A stretch of 61,537 bases of DNA from Gammaproteobacteria bacterium (GTDB lineage Bacteria > Pseudomonadota > Gammaproteobacteria > UBA1113). Numbering within the stretch: the first letter of the stretch is position 1; each line of letters starts with the position of its first letter. A model generated the notes under the pieces. It worked only from the letters and a program-made list of their open reading frames with translations. It did no database searches and was not told the origin of the DNA. The DNA lies in NCBI GenBank assembly GCA_020051015.1, contig JAGVJQ010000024.1:1-61537 (forward strand), in the 5' to 3' direction. Both the position numbers and the translations under genes were made by a program. Positions 25,579 to 50,430 of this stretch are shown one piece after another.

Positions 25579-26145
25579 TTGATGAGGGTATTGGTTTTAT
25601 TACTTTTTTGTTTAATCTTATCAAGCTGCATGAATGCTGCCATGTCCAGCGCTAATGCCCTTTATGATCACCGTAGCGTGCAAAATAATATTCAAAATCA
25701 CTATCAACAAGTTGCCGTTTACAATGCTATTAAGCAAGACCCTAAAATAAAGCAACCGACCGATATTGGTGTTTCCGCCATTAACAATACCATTTTACTC
25801 ACGGGGCAAACACCGGATTTTGCTAGCCGTCAAGAAGCTGGTTTAGATGCCAAAATGACACCAGATGTTACAACAGTATTGAATTTTATAGATATTTCGC
25901 CGCCAGTTAGTGAAGGAACCAAACTAGCTGATTCGTGGATTACAACCAAAATTAAAACAAAATTTGTTACTAGCAATGATGTAAGTCCTGATAGCATAAA
26001 GATTATTACTGATGATGGGGTTGTTTATTTAATGGGCTCCGTCCCGCGACTGGAAGCCAATGCCGCGATTAATATTGCGCGCGATACAGATGGCGTTAAA
26101 AAAGTGGTGACAGTCATCTATTTCCTTGACCCAAGCACGAGCTAG
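25579..26145 (+). CDS. Dual-BON-domain lipoprotein (DolP/YraP-like)
   Basis: Lipobox LSSC; ILLTGQ, DSWITTKIK, GVVYLMG, GVKKVV motifs. Confidence 0.88.
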   Translation: MMRVLVLLLFCLILSSCMNAAMSSANALYDHRSVQNNIQNHYQQVAVYNAIKQDPKIKQPTDIGVSAINNTILLTGQTPDFASRQEAGLDAKMTPDVTTVLNFIDISPPVSEGTKLADSWITTKIKTKFVTSNDVSPDSIKIITDDGVVYLMGSVPRLEANAAINIARDTDGVKKVVTVIYFLDPSTS

Positions 26146-26150
26146 TATAT

Positions 26151-26302
26151 CAGGGCTCCCTCATTAAAAATTTCAAAGCTCGATGCTGCCTGATTTGAAG
26201 GGCGCCTCGGACCATGGATGGTATGGAGAGCGAGGCCATGGATGGCCGTCCCTGAAAAACCAGGCAGCATCGAGCTTTGAAATTTTTAATGAGATGGCCC
26301 TG
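26151..26302. mobile_element. GGA-hairpin MITE (about 152 bp)
   Basis: Perfect 33-bp inverted repeats at 26160-26192 and 26261-26293; core homologous to the carB insert at 46551-46617. Confidence 0.85.
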
Positions 26303-26398
26303 GTTAGTATATCCGTTGCTCTTGAAAAATTTTTGAAATTAAGGTATAACACTCGTCTTAATAAATTGCACATTGTTTGACCTTCTGAAATTTAGGAG

Positions 26399-28224: not shown

Positions 28225-29753
28225 ATTTTATTTACTAACTGCGCCAAATCTGCTTGCACGTTGCTAATGACACTGCCCCAATCTCCATTTTTGCGTTGTC
28301 TATATAAGCGTGCTGACGGATACCATGGAGAGTCATCTCGATCACGCATCCAACGCCAATCTGGTAATGTGGCTAACAAAATCCAAACCGGCTTACCCAA
28401 GGCGCCCGCTAAGTGTGCTATGGCAGTATCAACACAAATAATTAAATCCATTTGCATTATCATTGCAGCAGTATGATCGAAATCGCTCATCTTATTAGTT
28501 AAATCTAATAAGTTATCTGCAGAAAATCCGACCATTTCATCATTTTCTTTTTGTAAATTATAAAACTGGATATCCTTATTATTTAAGATTGGCGCAAATT
28601 GCTGCCATGACATAGAACGAGTTGCATCTTTAGCATGATGTTTACTTCCTTTATAAGAAATGCCTACTTTTAGCTTACGCGTCGTATCTGGAATGGTTAA
28701 TGCTACGGTGGGTGAAAGATAAGGCTTTTTAGCAGCCATTAAATCTTTTTCCCTTATTTTTAAAATAAAAGGGAGGCTCATCATTGGTAAGTAATAATCA
28801 TAACCCGGCACATCATCTCGATTAATGCAAAAATCATCGATTACGGAAATTGATTTAAATAAAGGGATTAACTCTTCTCTGGTTTGTAAAATGATTCGAC
28901 AATTATCTTGTTTAATCCGTGGTAAAAATCGAATAAATTGTATTGCATCACCGCGTCCTTGTTCAGCAATCACTAATAAAGTTTTATTCTTTAATTGCTG
29001 TCCTTGCCAACGTGGATAACGATCATCTTGTAACAACATATTATCTCTGACATCCAGATAGGCATTGCTAAAAAAACGCCATTCATATTCTAGCCAACCC
29101 GCCTTAAAATCTCCTTGTGATAATAAACTCAACGCCATATTCCAATGTGCAGAAGGATAGTTTGGCTTATATTCTATAGCTCGACGATAATAAGATGTTG
29201 CCGTTACACTATCACCTTGAGAATAGTAATAAAATCCTAACTCAAAACATAAACTCGCAGCATCTAATTTTGTTTTCAAAAACTCATGATATATTTGCAA
29301 GGCTTGTTTACATGTGGCTCCTTTAACAAAGTCTTTAATACCTACTAAAGAAATTGCACGGTAATTTTCTGCTTGTTGTTGATAAAGCTCCGCTAAACTT
29401 TCTTTGCTTTGAATATCATTTGGTTGTTTATTTAAGAAGTATTGTAAATCTCGAACTGCAAGATTAATCAATTTCATGTTTTTATACGCAATGGCATTAT
29501 TCTTGCGAAAATGGATAGCATTAGGATTTAGTTCAATTGCTTTTTCCAATAAAGGAGCAACCAACTCATATTCTTTGTTTTGATAATAAGCTAAGCCCAA
29601 ATAATGTAAAGCATCTGCATCATGTGGATGCTCAGTAATGATTTCTTGATAACATTGAATTGCCGAAAGCAAATCACCAGTTGCTTGTTTTTTTTGTGCA
29701 TCTTCAAGCCGCATTTTTATCAGATTGAATTGCTTATTTTTCTTATCATCCAT
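28221..29753 (-). CDS. TPR-repeat protein with glycosyltransferase family 9-like C-terminus
   Basis: TPR motifs; GWLEYEWR, AEQGRGDAIQFIRF, DTAIAHLAGALGKP, DWRW...SPWYPS. Confidence 0.88.
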   Translation of the reverse strand: MDDKKNKQFNLIKMRLEDAQKKQATGDLLSAIQCYQEIITEHPHDADALHYLGLAYYQNKEYELVAPLLEKAIELNPNAIHFRKNNAIAYKNMKLINLAVRDLQYFLNKQPNDIQSKESLAELYQQQAENYRAISLVGIKDFVKGATCKQALQIYHEFLKTKLDAASLCFELGFYYYSQGDSVTATSYYRRAIEYKPNYPSAHWNMALSLLSQGDFKAGWLEYEWRFFSNAYLDVRDNMLLQDDRYPRWQGQQLKNKTLLVIAEQGRGDAIQFIRFLPRIKQDNCRIILQTREELIPLFKSISVIDDFCINRDDVPGYDYYLPMMSLPFILKIREKDLMAAKKPYLSPTVALTIPDTTRKLKVGISYKGSKHHAKDATRSMSWQQFAPILNNKDIQFYNLQKENDEMVGFSADNLLDLTNKMSDFDHTAAMIMQMDLIICVDTAIAHLAGALGKPVWILLATLPDWRWMRDRDDSPWYPSARLYRQRKNGDWGSVISNVQADLAQLVNKM

Positions 29754-29775
29754 GATAGTACCTTTTTAAGCACTG

Positions 29776-31047
29776 TTATTTCTCATATTTGTGTACAAAA
29801 AACAGTAAGCATAAACATAATAGCGAAATAATCGGTAATATTGATAAGGCCGCATGATAAGTTTCTATCGAATACCCGCCAGATTGTGTAGTTGATTTCC
29901 AATGATCAAGTAAAATACCTAATAAATCTTGAAAGACTGCACCTAAGATAACAATAATCATATTAGTAAACGCAGCAATAGTTCCATTATATTCCCGTGG
30001 AAATCGTTGTTTGTTGATCGAAAAAGCAATTAACATACTACTCGTGCAAAAACCAAAAGCAAATAACAACATAAACAATAACGGTACAAATTGTACATTA
30101 GCATAAATAATTGTTAGTAAACAAATTAGGGCCCCGAAATTTCCTAATAACATGACTGAGCGTTGTTTGTTAAAGTAAGTAGAAATCCAACCATTAATTG
30201 GACCCCCAAAACCTATTCCGATAAAAATTGCTGAATTGATATTAGCCGCCATTACCGGTGTTAAATTATATTGTTTAGTTAAAAATGGTACAGCCCACAA
30301 TTCACCAAATGCGATAATTGGTACCACCATTAAACCGGCATAAAGTGCTGTTACCCATGATTGTGGTTGTCGCGAAATTGCGATTAATGCTGTTTTTAAT
30401 TGCCCTTCTGGTAAAGTATGTCTTTGCTTTTTCACATGCTGATTTAACAAGCAAACCGGACAATCAAGAATAGTCAGCCAAATTAAAATGCTAATCGCAA
30501 AACCAATTACCGACAAGATAATCATACTATCTTGCCAACCACTTACTTCTACTAATTTTGCTAATGGTGCTTGACCAAATATCGCACCGGCAACACCAAG
30601 TGAATTAGTTAAACCCACCATCAAGGGATAACGTCGATCAGGAAACCAACTTGATGCTAATTTTAATACTCCGATAAAAGCAAATGCTGAACCAAATCCA
30701 ATTAAGATTCGCGCCAAGCCCAATACCCATAACATTTGTGAAACTGCAAATAATAAACTACCTAATGAAATCACTGCGCATGCTAATGATAATAAACGTC
30801 GGGCACCAAATCTATCTAATAATAATCCCACAGGAATTTGTGCTACCGCATATGAATAAAAGTATAAAGATGAAATAAAACTTAAGGTTGCTGCATTCAT
30901 ATTAAACGTTTGCATTAATGGTTCAGCCATAACGGTTGGCGCTACGCGCTGCAAATATTCAATTCCATAAAATAATGATGCGACTAACCACACTACCCAT
31001 GCATAGCCTAAGGTATTTTCTTTAGTAATACTTTCAGATAATTTCAT
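29776..31047 (-). CDS. MFS transporter, Pht-like
   Basis: GLLLDRFGARR motif A; paralogous to 8630-9925 (FY..EY..RV.P.VM, GFGSAFAF.G.KLAS.W). Confidence 0.85.
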   Translation of the reverse strand: MKLSESITKENTLGYAWVVWLVASLFYGIEYLQRVAPTVMAEPLMQTFNMNAATLSFISSLYFYSYAVAQIPVGLLLDRFGARRLLSLACAVISLGSLLFAVSQMLWVLGLARILIGFGSAFAFIGVLKLASSWFPDRRYPLMVGLTNSLGVAGAIFGQAPLAKLVEVSGWQDSMIILSVIGFAISILIWLTILDCPVCLLNQHVKKQRHTLPEGQLKTALIAISRQPQSWVTALYAGLMVVPIIAFGELWAVPFLTKQYNLTPVMAANINSAIFIGIGFGGPINGWISTYFNKQRSVMLLGNFGALICLLTIIYANVQFVPLLFMLLFAFGFCTSSMLIAFSINKQRFPREYNGTIAAFTNMIIVILGAVFQDLLGILLDHWKSTTQSGGYSIETYHAALSILPIISLLCLCLLFFVHKYEK

Positions 31048-45957: not shown

Positions 45958-48900
45958 TTAAGATTGTAATGGTGTATAAGAATAATCCTGTCCACTTTCT
46001 AAAGCTTGAATAATTGCCGTTGCTTCCGCTAATGTCGTAGCGCAGCAAATACGATGCTGTAATGCGGCACGACGCACAGAAGCAGAGTTGGCAATGGCGT
46101 GGCGTTCACTGGCAGTATTAATAATAAAAGTTACTGCTTGATTTTTGATCAAGTCAATAACATTAGGACGCCCCTCATGAACTTTACTGATTGCTGCACC
46201 ATGGATACCAGCAGCCTTTAATGTTTGTAACGTACCGTAAGTGGCTTCGATGGTAAAACCAAGCGTCATTAAGCGTTGCGCTAATTTTACTAGTGCAAAT
46301 TTATCTTCATCACGCACACTCAATACCGCTTTGCCACGCTTGGGTAATTGTAAACCAGCCGCAATCATCGCCTTGCCATAAGCTTGACCAAAATTCTTTG
46401 CGCGCCCCATGACTTCACCTGTTGATTTCATTTCTGGGCCGGGAATAGGATCGACGCCTGGAAATTTTATAAAAGGAAATACAGGGACTTTGACAGCAAA
46501 ACCTGTTGTTTCAAATTTAAAAAATGAAGTTTGTCCATCGACGGTGATATTTTGAAGGGCGTCTCGACCAGGGATGGTACGAAGAGCCGAGTACATGGAT
46601 GTACGTCCCTGAGAAACATCACCGTCGATGGACAATACATTTTTTAACTTCTGCCCCAACATCACTTGCACCGCTAATTTAATAATCGGCACGCTGATCG
46701 CTTTCGCCACAAATGGCATCGTACGTGAAGCACGTGGATTGACTTCCAATACATAAATCTGGTTATTTTGAATGGCAAATTGCACATTCATCAATCCAAT
46801 AACGCCCATGCTTAATGCTAATTTTGTTGTTTGACGACACAATTCATCTTGCACATCTTGCGACAAACTAAATGGTGGTAAACTGCATGATGAATCACCC
46901 GAATGCACACCAGCTTGTTCGATATGTTCCATAACGCCAGTAATTAATACCGTTTTCCCATCACAAATTGCATCAACATCGACTTCAATCGCATTATCAA
47001 GGAATTGATCGACTAATACCGGCGTATCCGCAGCAGCGCCCAATGCTCGCACTAAATAATGTTCGAGTGCTTCAGGATCATGAACGATTTCCATCGCCTG
47101 ACCACCAAGAACAAAAGATGGCCTTACTAACAATGGATAAATTAATTTATTTGCCGCGTGTATACCTTCTTCAAGGTTAGTAATTGCGACACAAGCAGGT
47201 TGTTGTAAATTTAGCTGATTAATTAAATTTGAAAACTGTGCTCTATCTTCAGCAAGATCAATCACTGAAGATGGCGTACCTAATAATTTAAACCCGGCAT
47301 GCTCAATGGCATGTGCCAGTTTTAATGGAGTTTGCCCGCCTAATTGTACAATGACGCCATCTGGTTTTTCTAATTCCAAAATGGCTAATACATGTTCTTC
47401 TGATAGTGGTTCAAAGTATAAACGATCAGCAGTATCATAATCTGTCGATACAGTCTCAGGATTACAGTTAATCATTATCGCTTGATAACCAGCTTGTTTT
47501 AATGCATATGCCGCATGCACGCAACAATAATCAAATTCAATGCCTTGGCCAATACGATTGGGACCGCTACCAATAATCACAACTTTAGGCACATTCTCAA
47601 CACGAGCTTCACAAGAATCCTGATAAGTAGAATACATATAAGCGGTAGAGGCAGAGAATTCTCCGGCACAACTATCAACACGTTGAAAAACAGGTTTCAC
47701 ACCTAATGCCATACGTTGTTCACGCACTTGGGTTTCAGTTACGTCTAACAATTGAGATAAGCGTTTATCAGTAAATCCTTGCCGTTTTAGCTTTTTCCAT
47801 TGATCAACATCTAATTGTTGTAATTTTGAAAATTTAATCGCTTTTGCCGCTGCAGCTGACATAAATAATTTTGAGCCCACTGAAATTAATTCTGCCCCTT
47901 GCTGCAAAAACCAAGGATCAATACCTGTCAGTTGATACACCTCTGCTACTGTTAATCCCAAACGAAAGGCATCAGCAAAATAAAGTAATCGCTCAGGACC
48001 CGGATTATGTAATGCTGCTCTCACTTGCTCTAGTGCATCCGGTTGCGATAAACAAACACGTGACTCAAAACCGCATAAACCTGTTTCTAAGCTGATAATT
48101 GCCTTTTGAAAGGCTTGCTGGAAATTTTGACCGAGTGCCATCACTTCACCAACTGATTTCATTTGTGTTGTCAATGTTGTGTCAGCTTGTGGGAATTTTT
48201 CAAAATGAAACCGCGGTAACTTTACTACCACGTAATCAATCGATGGTTCAAATGACATTGGAATAACGCCATTAGTCATATCATTTCGAATTTCATCTAA
48301 CGTATATCCAACAGCTAATTTAGCAGCTACTTTTGCAATAGGAAAACCCGTTGCTTTTGAGGCTAAAGCTGATGAACGCGAAACACGTGGATTCATTTCA
48401 ATGACTAACATGCGACCTGTTTTTGGCTCCACCGCAAATTGCACATTAGAACCACCCGTTTCTACACCAATTTCGCGTAAGATCGCAATCGACGCGGCGC
48501 GCATGGCTTGATATTCTTTATCTGTCAATGTCTGAGCAGGCGCCACTGTAATTGAATCGCCGGTATGAATACCCACTGGATCCATATTTTCAATTGAGCA
48601 AACAATAATGCAATTATCATTTTTATCACGTACGACTTCTAATTCAAACTCTTTCCAACCTAAGATTGACTCTTCAATTAATAACTCGTGATTGGCGGAC
48701 AACTCAAAACCACGTTCACAAATTGATTGGAATTCTTCGAGATGATAAGCAATGCCACCACCGCTACCGCCTAAGGTATAAGAAGGACGAATGACGACTG
48801 GAAAGCCAAATTCCATTTGTGCTGTTAATGCATCGGTCATTGAATAAACTGCTTTTGACCGCGCAACTTCTAAACCAATTTTTTGCATAGCTAAGCGAAA

Positions 48901-49293
48901 TAAAGCACGATCCTCCGCTTTTTCAATCGCCTCTTGTGATGCACCAATTAATTCCACGTGAAAATCAGCAAGTACACCTTGTTGCGCTAATGCTAACGCA
49001 CAATTTAATGCGGTTTGTCCACCCATGGTTGGCAATAATGCATCTGGTTTTTCTTGTTCAATAATACGCGCAACGACTTCAGGCGTAATAGGCTCAATAT
49101 ATGTTGCATCGGCTAATTCTGGATCGGTCATAATCGTGGCTGGATTGGAGTTTACCAAAATCACTCGATAGCCTTCTTCTTTTAATGCTTTGCATGCTTG
49201 TACGCCGGAATAATCAAATTCACACGCTTGCCCAATGATAATTGGCCCCGCACCGAGAATTAAAATGGATTGAATGTCAGTTCGTTTTGGCAT
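45958..49293 (-). CDS. carB: Carbamoyl-phosphate synthase large subunit (with in-frame MITE insert)
   Basis: [17 protein letters not shown], two ATP-grasp domains, [12 protein letters not shown] domain. Confidence 0.98.
46531..46635. mobile_element. In-frame palindromic MITE inside carB
   Basis: Perfect 18-bp IRs ttgtccatcgacggtgat/atcaccgtcgatggacaa; 105 bp = 35 codons; core matches 26194-26260. Confidence 0.88.
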
Positions 49294-49302
49294 GAAATAA
49301 CC

Positions 49303-50430
49303 TTAAACAGCTTCTAAAAATTCGTCAAAAATATTATTCGCATCTAATGGACCAGGACTGGCTTCTGGATGGCCTTGCACACTCATGACGGGTTTATTAG
49401 TATGACGAAAACCTTGTACCGTATCATCAAATAATGATCGATGGGTTATTTGTAATTCAGGTGGCAATGTTGTTTCATCGACCGCAAAATTATGATTTTG
49501 ACTCGTAACTTGCACGCGACCATTTCGTAAGTCTTTAACGGGATGATTAATACCGTGATGACCAAACTTCATTTTAAATGTTTGTGCCCCAAGTGCTAAT
49601 GCTAACAATTGATGGCCGAGACAAATACCCAATATCGGCAATTCAGCCGATAGTAATTGCCGAATTTCTTCAATAATTTGACCACATGCATCAGGATCCC
49701 CAGGGCCATTAGATAAGACTACTGCATCAGGTTTTAGCGCCAAAACCTCTTTGCTCGGTGTTAATGCAGGCACAACCGTCACTCGACATCCGCGATCAAC
49801 TAATTGCCGTAAAATGGCATATTTTACGCCAAAATCGTAGACCACAAGATGCTTCTGGTTAGCTTGAGACTTCGGTATTTCTTTTGCATGTTGTCGTATT
49901 AACATTGAGCTTCCTTCAGTCCACTCATAAATTTTTCGTGTACTTACTTCAGCTGTTAAATCACGACCTAACATTAATGGTACTTCTTGCGCAAGATTAA
50001 TGGCCATTGTTGCATTAGGATCTTTAGCCATAATACAGGCCATTTGCGAACCACGTTCACGCAAATAAATTGTCAATTGCCGTGTATCAATCCCGGCAAT
50101 ACCCACTAATTTTTGCTCAATTAACCAATCAGAAAACGATTGTTCTGAGCGCCAATTACTGGCTATGGAGGAACACTCACGCACAATGACCCCTGTCGCC
50201 CAGGCTCGATGCGACTCTCGATCTGCGTGATTGACACCGACGTTACCAATGTGCGGCGCAGTAAACATCACCATTTGCCCAGCATAAGAGGGATCAGTTA
50301 ACACTTCTTGATAGCCGCTCATGGCTGTATTAAATACCACTTCACCCGTAGTAATTCCATGAAAACCAATAGCCTCACCCCAAAACAGGGTACCATCGGC
50401 AAAAGCTAATAAAGCAGGCACAGCTGACAC
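49303..50430 (-). CDS. carA: Carbamoyl-phosphate synthase small subunit
   Basis: GEVVFNT, LSNGPGDP, GICLGHQ, TSQNH, QGHPEASPGP motifs. Confidence 0.97.
   Translation of the reverse strand: MSAVPALLAFADGTLFWGEAIGFHGITTGEVVFNTAMSGYQEVLTDPSYAGQMVMFTAPHIGNVGVNHADRESHRAWATGVIVRECSSIASNWRSEQSFSDWLIEQKLVGIAGIDTRQLTIYLRERGSQMACIMAKDPNATMAINLAQEVPLMLGRDLTAEVSTRKIYEWTEGSSMLIRQHAKEIPKSQANQKHLVVYDFGVKYAILRQLVDRGCRVTVVPALTPSKEVLALKPDAVVLSNGPGDPDACGQIIEEIRQLLSAELPILGICLGHQLLALALGAQTFKMKFGHHGINHPVKDLRNGRVQVTSQNHNFAVDETTLPPELQITHRSLFDDTVQGFRHTNKPVMSVQGHPEASPGPLDANNIFDEFLEAV

Follow-up and report, generated by a model that had tools for sequence, protein, structure and literature searches.

The carB gene of this gammaproteobacterium very probably carries, in a loop of variable length, a tolerated and translated insertion of a divergent mobile element of the TwoAYGGAY type, comparable to the Rickettsia palindromic elements (RPE). 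The gene lies in a stretch of 61,537 nucleotides, called the window here. The coordinates of the features discussed are listed in Table 1.

Table 1. Features of the carB insert, of its host gene and of a full-length intergenic copy (window coordinates)
Feature	Position	Strand	Basis
carB, carbamoyl-phosphate synthetase large subunit, 1111 aa, single open frame	45958-49293	minus	ORF translation, phmmer
Insert bounded by inverted repeats, 105 bp, 35 codons (CarB residues 887-921)	46531-46635	plus	
Basal stem, left arm, 18 nt, perfectly complementary to right arm	46531-46548	plus	
Basal stem, right arm, 18 nt	46618-46635	plus	
Conserved core, three-way junction, homologous to intergenic copies	46551-46612	plus	blastn and covariance-model alignment
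Hairpin 1, loop AGGGAU (variant of AUGGAU, found also in 5 intergenic copies)	46567-46578	plus	
Hairpin 2, GUAC stem, loop AUGGAU	46591-46604	plus	
Full match to covariance model R1 (carB copy excluded from build)	46525-46641	plus, antisense to carB	
Outer 10-bp inverted repeat, left half, within SFFK codons	46517-46526		
Outer 10-bp inverted repeat, right half	46638-46647		
Zone with 18 of the 20 listed differences between window and X2	46531-46644		
Full-length intergenic copy, 153 nt	26152-26304	plus	R1 127.3 bits; RF01731 35.3 bits, E 4.4e-4
9-bp target duplication TAGTATATC, left copy, of the intergenic element	26143-26151	plus	
9-bp target duplication TAGTATATC, right copy, of the intergenic element	26305-26313	plus	

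The CarB protein of the window matches its E. coli counterpart (1bxr_A) with 1415 bits in phmmer, and the E. coli protein (1073 aa) aligns to residues 1-884 and 932-1099, leaving a loop unaligned. Between the VMLG and AVK motifs (G to A) this loop has 52 residues, against 17 in E. coli (G871 to S889). The same interval measures 17-19 residues in 27 of 29 relatives (17 in seventeen, 18 in nine and 19 in one), and 28 and 38 residues in the other two, G001 and G008. Among the best 80 metagenomic carB relatives, the stretch around the loop, which has 121 aa in the window, has 86 aa in 79 and 90 aa in one; the window gene is therefore 35 aa longer. These 35 codons are the 105-bp insert, and deleting it brings the loop back to its usual length. 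The insert contains no stop, the carB frame runs on beyond it, and the host protein is conserved on both sides. A scan of positions 46200-46900 also returned one weak terminator-like site (46276-46298).

The insert belongs to a repeat family of which the 2.52-Mb assembly contains 16 full copies and some fragments. Fifteen copies are intergenic and only the carB copy lies inside a gene. A covariance model (R1) built from the 15 intergenic copies, with the carB copy left out, gave the carB segment 80.6 bits (E 6.6e-17 in the genome search, 1.5e-18 in a second computation), so that it is a true member of the family. By blastn, its core (46551-46612) and that of the intergenic copy (26194-26258) share 84% identity over 63 nt. 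The folded stems of the copies span 88-166 nt, with arms of 20-46 nt, and only short chance frames cross them. RNAalifold and pair counts on the 15 intergenic copies gave a fold of five helices with 96.5% of cells paired. In shuffles the figure is 84.1%, and 0 of 500 came up to the observed level; slid controls gave 37-46%. Both sides were altered in 19 of 42 pairs. The loop of hairpin 1 is AUGGAU in eight of these copies, AGGGAU in five and another sequence in two, and that of hairpin 2 is AUGGAU in 12 of the 15. The carB copy fits the same fold model; the stem of its hairpin 2 is GUAC where the family has GGCC, both sides being different and the pairing retained.

Mobility of the family is evident from its target duplications. 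Exact, symmetric direct repeats of 9-10 bp flank four of the 16 copies, against 80 of 20000 random sites with at least 9 bp (binomial P 4.5e-7), and seven of the 16 have such repeats of at least 7 bp. About 150 nt lie between the duplications of the copies that have them. The family thus behaves like a miniature inverted-repeat transposable element (MITE). A transposase-bearing parent with matching ends was not found in the assembly (88.7% complete), where blastn with the outer arms matched only the copies. The distribution is patchy: only two of 61 related genomes have the family, and G001, of the same genus, does not. In a search of one genome per species (185,579 species), the core pattern was matched at 10 loci in three other uncultured gammaproteobacterial MAGs, none of them inside a long frame. 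At these loci, one frame of 243 aa and another of 122 aa merely touch an element end. The preliminary description of the locus had reported the interval of 52 residues against about 17 in E. coli, had traced the excess to a 105-bp palindromic segment with perfect 18-bp inverted repeats in an otherwise intact enzyme gene, and had proposed that the core is homologous to an intergenic MITE at 26151; all of this is borne out by the present data.

The extent of the carB copy is less sharply defined. Its perfect arms (46531-46548 and 46618-46635) can be lengthened to 29 nt at 86%. Its orientation is antisense to the gene, and it is an outlier of the family, with a core identity of 81-85% to 13 of the 15 others and 74-76% to two, and target duplications are absent from it. 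For these reasons its borders can be placed only between 105 and about 117 bp, and the absence of a duplication means that both the borders and the mode of arrival are deduced from its family relatives. The outer 10-bp repeat given in the preliminary description is present (the pair 46517-46526/46638-46647 was scored as 13 nt at 92%), but it is probably not the border of the element. Its left half encodes SFFK residues that occur in similar form in relatives without the element, and its right half is altered at two of 10 places in a second strain, with no matching change in the left half. Insertion of the whole 131 bp, including this repeat, was considered and is unlikely, since 131 cannot be divided by three, the residues encoded by the left half are shared with relatives, and the right half shows decay in the second strain (X2) without a counterpart on the left.

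The segment was absent from all 29 relatives and from all of the best 80 metagenomic carB relatives, so that the broad sharing by orthologues which the preliminary description had named as an objection was not seen. Among 5.8 billion proteins, only the protein of the window carries it. The consensus antisense translation of the family, searched against the same 5.8 billion proteins (75-2000 aa), returned four candidates and no significant match, which is weak evidence. An nhmmer profile of full-length copies, run on 30 carB loci, recovered only the gene of the window and left the loop of G001 blank. Extra residues do occur at the same site of CarB in G001 (+11), P0002 (+9) and G008 (+21), with no trace of the element, and a palindrome check of the longer loops of G008 and G001 gave only weak repeats of 10-18 nt. 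Because G001 and P0002 are the two nearest relatives and their loops are already 9-11 residues longer than usual, the net gain relative to them is 24-26 residues and not 35. The insertion may alternatively be older, and have been partly lost later in the G001 and P0002 lineages.

The element is present in two strains. A contig from one run (X1) is identical to the window over 46387-46806, and a contig from another study and another habitat (X2) covers 46458-46944 with 21 substitutions and no gaps. The element differs from X2 at 18 of 114 nt and the flanks at 2-3 of 373 nt, a divergence about 20-fold faster, which exceeds simple neutral drift and for whose rate our preferred explanation does not account. 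In the peptide, 10 of the 38 residues 884-921 are changed at equal length and without a stop, while 0 of 141 flanking residues are changed (two synonymous and no replacement changes in 141 codons). Pairing of the arms is retained: in X2, 17 of the 18 basal-stem pairs are standard on the plus strand and 13 of 18 on the mRNA strand, a strand signal that comes from four pairs in one low-depth contig (depth 4). At least 17 pairs survived ten random substitutions in 0.1% of trials. Both partners are changed in the pairs 46533/46633 and 46534/46632 and also in 46543/46623, which becomes a wobble pair; single changes at 46541, 46547 and 46628 produce G-U pairs on the plus strand, and an A>G change at 46549 creates a new pair with 46617. 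The plus strand has a predicted fold energy of -59.6 kcal/mol in the window and -54.4 kcal/mol in X2; for the mRNA strand the values are -58.8 and -35.0 kcal/mol. Both signature hairpins are hit in X2, at 46576, which disrupts the pair that closes hairpin 1, and at 46595, which alters the first loop base of hairpin 2. Joints in X1 that skip 330-534 nt were rejected as empty sites, their sides being at most 35 nt long at a likeness threshold of 85%; numerous short fragments of conserved carB from other organisms accompany them as well.

These stem changes could mean that the carB copy still functions as a TwoAYGGAY-type RNA, or as a strand-specific DNA hairpin, on the plus strand and antisense to carB, the stretch then serving two purposes, for example as a CsrA-binding RNA or as a cis-antisense regulator of carB. 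The better pairing of the plus strand, its two-sided, wobble and G-U-compatible changes together with the new pair, and its small loss of fold energy beside the large one of the mRNA strand all point in this direction. The assembly contains a gene for CsrA, and AYGGAY loops have been proposed as Csr/Rsm sites (10.64898/2026.09.22.753630). However, both hairpins are damaged in X2, and no promoter-like site was found on either strand of 46200-46900, where shuffles average 1.5. The family alignment does not reveal the working strand, since G-U (12 cells) barely exceeds A-C (9 cells), and the signal in X2 is confined to the few pairs noted above. Quasi-palindrome template switching can also restore pairing. 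On balance we regard a working RNA or hairpin as distinctly unlikely. Dual use of the carB copy, with codons of a drifting loop on one strand and a maintained TwoAYGGAY-type hairpin on the other, is likewise judged unlikely; if true, it would mean that selection, or a dedicated DNA or RNA process, acts on the fold of a mobile element inside an essential gene, and it would offer a natural handle on what TwoAYGGAY elements do.

It is also conceivable that CarB has lost its function through the insert, or is gradually losing it; the gene would then be a young pseudogene, or encode an enzyme whose allosteric coupling is impaired, and merely be free of stops so far. The allosteric domain follows the insert at a distance of about 10-50 residues, the pLDDT of the insert in the AF2 model is low (49-54, against 81-89 beside it), and host-associated Legionellales often lose biosynthetic genes. 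Such a course is highly improbable in view of the 1111 open codons and the strong match to E. coli CarB, and because carA lies directly upstream in the same orientation, no second carB was found in the assembly, the flanks of X2 have no replacement changes and 18 substitutions have altered neither the length nor the frame of the insert. The AF2 model of residues 568-1111 retains the CPS fold (TM 0.84 to 1bxr_A), and the enzyme is presumably active, with the insert probably exposed at its surface. An assembly artefact, or a chimeric contig joining carB to the repeat, is hardly credible. The repeat does break assemblies at other copies (at the ends of contigs C4 and C62, and in the related assembly G004 at the ends of contigs C1 and C2), but contigs of two runs from two studies, X1 and X2, bridge the insert without a gap and with carB on both sides, which answers the concern about an artefact voiced in the preliminary description. 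Collapse onto another copy is excluded, because no other copy has arms resembling those of the carB copy.

Comparison with known systems places the family as a divergent TwoAYGGAY-type element below the Rfam cut-off. RF01731 was the Rfam family with the highest bit score for the intergenic copy of Table 1. Three of the 14 other full copies searched reached 31-36 bits (35.8, 35.2 and 31.3), the remaining 11 and the C79 fragment gave no match at E <=0.1, and the carB copy gave 25.6 bits (E 0.071, plus strand); no copy reached the gathering cut-off of 43 bits, the best having 35.8. As described in the available text, the TwoAYGGAY RNA motif (RF01731; Weinberg et al. 2010, PMC2864571) shares with the family a basal stem, a junction and two successive hairpins with AUGGAU loops, as well as its occurrence in multiple copies, a very uneven copy number among relatives and a home in the Gammaproteobacteria. 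A mobile-element-like spread of the motif is suspected, and 1,693 of 16,086 Pseudomonas hits fall within annotated CDS (10.64898/2026.09.22.753630). Relative to the accessible descriptions of TwoAYGGAY, the family lacks the extended Pseudomonas-type architecture, the arrays of 5-6-mer repeats and the doublets, and its copies bear target duplications and outer terminal repeats that are conserved; the portion of that study available to us does not discuss TwoAYGGAY copies translated in frame within a named enzyme.

In-frame insertion of a palindrome is a rare but already known kind of event. The RPEs, as presented in the accessible part of PMC10969869, are palindromes of about 100-150 bp that lie in frame in unrelated metabolic genes and, like the carB copy, lengthen the host protein by a peptide but leave it otherwise intact. 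They are set apart by description as an unrelated sequence family of another bacterial order; nearly half of them lie in genes, compared with one of 16 copies here, and their peptide frame is conserved, whereas the carB insert has a fast-changing peptide. QMITE2 of Coxiella burnetii (Wachter et al. 2018, PMC5896051) resembles the family in its Legionellales-related host and its very stable hairpin. In the available text of that paper, QMITE2 measures 150-190 bp and has unique direct repeats of 7-11 nt; terminal repeats and duplications occur in full-size copies and neither occurs in small ones, and some copies overlap gene ends or sit in frame within ORFs. Compared by description, QMITE2 has a GTAG REP and serves as a target of IS1111, and the family has a junction with two AUGGAU hairpins. 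The in-frame cases described there concern hypothetical ORFs and a C-terminal extension of enhC, unlike the position of the carB copy in the middle of a core enzyme.

The explanation we prefer, a tolerated insertion, may be outlined as follows. A short, non-autonomous element, in which a basal stem of variable but paired sequence encloses a conserved junction and two hairpins with AUGGAU loops, would have landed in carB in antisense orientation and in a stop-free phase, within the codons of a loop that lies between the final strands of the carbamoyl-phosphate domain. It would be transcribed and translated within CarB and lengthen the protein by about 35 residues (887-921); these would form a poorly ordered excursion, which the enzyme may tolerate because the length of this loop varies in this bacterial family. 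Selection would hold the frame open and the flanks constant while the inserted peptide drifts, and the complementarity of the arms may be kept by a palindrome process at the DNA level or by residual selection on the fold.

In-frame palindromic mobile DNA in housekeeping genes is well documented mainly in Rickettsia, and the carB case provides a clean example from another lineage, in an enzyme of well-known structure. Two natural alleles reveal which parts are constrained (frame, flanks and stem pairing) and which are not (the peptide). The practical value is modest. Residues 875-888 of CarB, in E. coli numbering, are flagged as an insertion-tolerant loop, and some caution is advisable in annotation, as TwoAYGGAY-type motifs can occur inside real genes. 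Finally, the family ties a TwoAYGGAY-type fold to transposon hallmarks, namely duplications of 9-10 bp, conserved outer repeats and a patchy distribution, and these hallmarks support the view of TwoAYGGAY as a mobile element, as far as it is set out in the available part of 10.64898/2026.09.22.753630.

The palindromic MITE-like segment in carB is a real insertion, made in frame in an intact metabolic enzyme, as the preliminary description had read it. The 1111-codon frame is open, 141 residues flanking the insert are unchanged in a second strain, and the 105-bp segment does lie between perfect 18-bp inverted repeats (table). Logan contigs from four sequencing runs were compared with 46200-47000. 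A 420-nt contig of run X1, which may be the source sample of the assembly, matches 46387-46806 without difference, and a 487-nt contig of run X2 (another study, another habitat; the second strain) aligns to 46458-46944 without gaps and differs by 21 substitutions. Both span the insert ungapped, which rules out an assembly artefact.

Coordinates of carAB, of the repeats in the carB insert and of the direct repeats around family copies
Feature	Location	Strand	Remarks
carA	49303-50430 (window)	minus	
carB	45958-49293 (window)	minus	single open frame, 1111 codons
Inner inverted repeats	46531-46548 + 46618-46635		perfect 18 nt, enclosing 105 bp
Outer inverted repeat	46517-46526 + 46638-46647		10 nt
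Direct repeat	26143-26151 + 26305-26313 (window)		TAGTATATC
Direct repeat	contig C36		ATATTCTAC
Direct repeat	contig C4		CAATCATGT
Direct repeat	contig C7		TAAAAATTAG

Escherichia coli CarB (1bxr_A, 1073 aa) could be aligned with CarB residues 1-884 and 932-1099, but not with the intervening stretch. The interval from the G of VMLG to the A of AVK comprises 52 residues, against 17 in E. coli by alignment coordinates, in agreement with the earlier count. In 29 relatives of the same family and class this interval measures 17 (17 genomes), 18 (9), 19 (1), 28 (the same-genus genome G001) or 38 residues (G008). The loop region, 121 aa in this gene, measures 86 aa in 79 of the 80 best metagenomic carB relatives and 90 aa in the other, and the 35-aa excess is absent from all. 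Judged from these loop lengths, the excess over the usual loop is exactly 35 residues. The two nearest relatives, G001 and P0002, have loops that exceed the usual length by 9-11 residues, so that the net gain over them comes to only 24-26 residues. The same loop is independently extended in the carB genes of G008 (L003, +21), G001 (L002, +11) and P0002 (+9), with no detectable element and no strong palindrome. Loop length varies across this bacterial family. The element profile found no match in the long loops of G001 and P0002, which might still be element remnants.

A covariance model (R1) was built from an alignment (A4) of 15 full intergenic copies, the carB copy being excluded. With R1, the carB copy scores 80.6 bits (E 6.6e-17 in the genome, 1.5e-18 in the window) over 46525-46641 of the plus strand. 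The segment is thus a true family member, placed antisense to carB; the homology of its core to the intergenic element at 26151, proposed before, is upheld. Of the 15 intergenic copies in this genome, 13 share 81-85% core identity with the carB copy and the two on contigs C12 and C7 share 74-76%, whereas the reference core is about 90% or more identical to most of the 15. The carB copy is also 82% identical to copies of another MAG. Copies in the MAGs SW_25 and BWOrg have the same one-base deletion, and those in a third MAG (clean355) have its GUAC/GUAC stem in hairpin 2. No target duplication was found at the carB copy, and its arms match those of no other copy; therefore, it either predates the recent burst or belongs to a sub-lineage since lost, and where it ends is uncertain. 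An outer 10-bp repeat does exist, but three points argue against it as the border: the 131 bp it delimits are indivisible by three, the product of its left half (SFFK) is similar in the element-free G001 and P0002, and its right half is altered at two places in X2 without a matching change in the left.

Using the intergenic core (26194-26258), blastn detected 17 places (one truncated) in the assembly of 2.52 Mb and 150 contigs, and an additional right-half fragment is present on C97; an R1 scan of the genome gave no further copies. Sixteen places are intergenic, the carB copy alone lying inside a long frame. Copy numbers are lower bounds because the repeat fragments assemblies. Contigs end inside copies both here (the ends of C4 and C62, which bear the same copy) and in G004, from another genus of the family (C1:29521-29594 and C2:1-88). 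The truncated copies, with the 5' half of the core (C79:32960-32995) or the right arm and core end (C97:24655-24710), show that the family decays as well as spreads. A short-armed copy (L044, C12:30757-30872) overlaps the last 6 nt of a 571-aa frame (29047-30762) and therefore supplies its last codons and stop. The full-length intergenic copy with a 9-bp duplication begins within a few bases of the stop of frame 25579-26145 (window 26145-26152), and so would lie in its 3' untranslated region if co-transcribed. In L031 (C53) and L038 (C16) the left arm, but not the right, has 12 additional nt that break the symmetry of the outer stem.

The proposed MITE nature holds for the family, which is mobile, judging from its duplications and patchy distribution. 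Four copies lie between exact 9-10-bp direct repeats placed symmetrically, 40-57 nt from the core on each side; such pairs occur at 80 of 20000 random genome sites (P 4.5e-7 for 4 of 16 copies). Repeats of at least 7 bp flank 7 of 16 copies at a tolerance of 10 nt, the null being 717 of 20000 random sites at a narrower 6 nt. Among 61 related genomes, R1 matched only G004 (5 hits) besides this one, and had no match in G001 (96% complete). A core pattern scan of 185,579 species (one genome each) yielded 10 loci in three other uncultured gammaproteobacterial MAGs, none inside a long frame. No parent element sharing the family's ends was found in the assembly searched by blastn. QMITE2 of Coxiella burnetii, as described in sections of PMC5896051, is similar in size, duplications and split into full and short copies, and some of its copies likewise supply gene-end codons and a stop, as L044 does.

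In the A4 consensus fold, a 23-bp basal stem leads through a tandem G-A/A-G step and a short stem to a junction that bears two hairpins with AUGGAU loops. Standard pairs fill 96.5% of cells (shuffles: 84.1%), two-sided changes affect 19 of 42 pairs, and 0 of 500 shuffles reached any of five pairing measures; partners slid by 1-3 columns paired in only 37-46%. Most two-sided changes belong to the basal stem, where 16 of 23 pairs have them, and the core is nearly invariant. Along the inner 20 bp of this stem (columns 7-26 with 93-112) copies differ at most positions, always with co-variation; a few stem columns are invariant (A16, T17, T20). Within sub-groups the 60-nt core and outer terminal repeats are nearly constant, and the arms have conserved outer 20-25 nt and a variable inner stem. 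The recently spread copies combine a fixed core with a hypervariable paired stem.

Ranked by bits, TwoAYGGAY (RF01731; 35.3 bits, E 4.4e-4, plus strand) was the top Rfam family for the intergenic copy. It scores 31-36 bits in 3 of 14 other full copies and 25.6 bits (E 0.071) in the carB copy, and none attains the 43-bit cut-off. With the defining architecture present (one basal stem and two successive hairpins with AYGGAY loops, according to parts of preprint 10.64898/2026.09.22.753630) and scores below the cut-off, we call the family a divergent TwoAYGGAY-type element and not a certified member. Read in the antisense phase that carB uses, 12 of the 15 intergenic cores are open, and therefore stop-free insertion needed no special adaptation.

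Most listed X2 differences (18 of 20) fall within 46531-46644, that is 114 of 487 nt (P 5e-10). Applied to the window, they give 10 replacements among residues 884-921, versus 0 replacements and 2 synonymous changes in the 141 flanking residues, and the insert keeps its length without a stop. Therefore, frame and flanks are constrained and the inserted peptide is not. The element diverges by about 16%, against 2-3 changes in 373 nt of flanks. This exceeds the expectation from silent sites of the flanks, and the main explanation, a tolerated insertion, leaves it unaccounted for. Ten differences fall on 36 arm positions, yet of the 18 stem pairs 17 remain standard on the plus strand versus 13 on the mRNA strand; random substitutions kept at least 17 in 0.1% of trials. 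Two-sided changes converted two pairs to other Watson-Crick pairs and one to a wobble pair. Single changes gave plus-strand G-U three times, and one change created an additional pair. The predicted fold energy goes from -59.6 to -54.4 kcal/mol on the plus strand and from -58.8 to -35.0 on the mRNA strand, a small loss against a large one. This gives the only hint of a role for the fold on the antisense strand. However, X2 has damage in both signature hairpins (46576, 46595), the surroundings of the insert contain no promoter-like site, the family alignment carries no strand signal (12 G-U versus 9 A-C cells), and the evidence is a single X2 contig of depth 4.

Tolerated insertion is also consistent with the protein model. 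Residues 568-1111 were modelled by AlphaFold2 with an alignment of 30 relatives (A5); the mean pLDDT is 80.8, and superposition of the model on E. coli CPS gives TM 0.84. The insert (model residues 320-354) has pLDDT 49-54 versus 81-89 in its flanks, which fits a flexible excursion. The suggestion of insert-like peptides in further proteins gained no example: a collection of 5.8 billion protein sequences contained no other carrier of the carB insert and none of the family consensus translation (weak evidence).

Palindromic repeats inserted in frame in metabolic genes are the hallmark of the Rickettsia palindromic elements in the sections of review PMC10969869 that treat them, and QMITEs sporadically insert in frame according to passages of PMC5896051; the carB insert resembles both. 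Parts of preprint 10.64898/2026.09.22.753630 place 1,693 of 16,086 Pseudomonas TwoAYGGAY matches within annotated CDS and suspect mobile-element-like spread; these parts do not treat in-frame cases or target duplications, on which its supplements may bear. A full-text search for 'TwoAYGGAY' returned no title or abstract on coding insertions among the matches listed. In-frame palindrome capture is thus an already known kind of event, to which carB of this uncultured bacterium adds an instance. Its added interest lies in the identity of the element and in a comparison of two alleles that separates constraint on frame and stem from freedom of the peptide.
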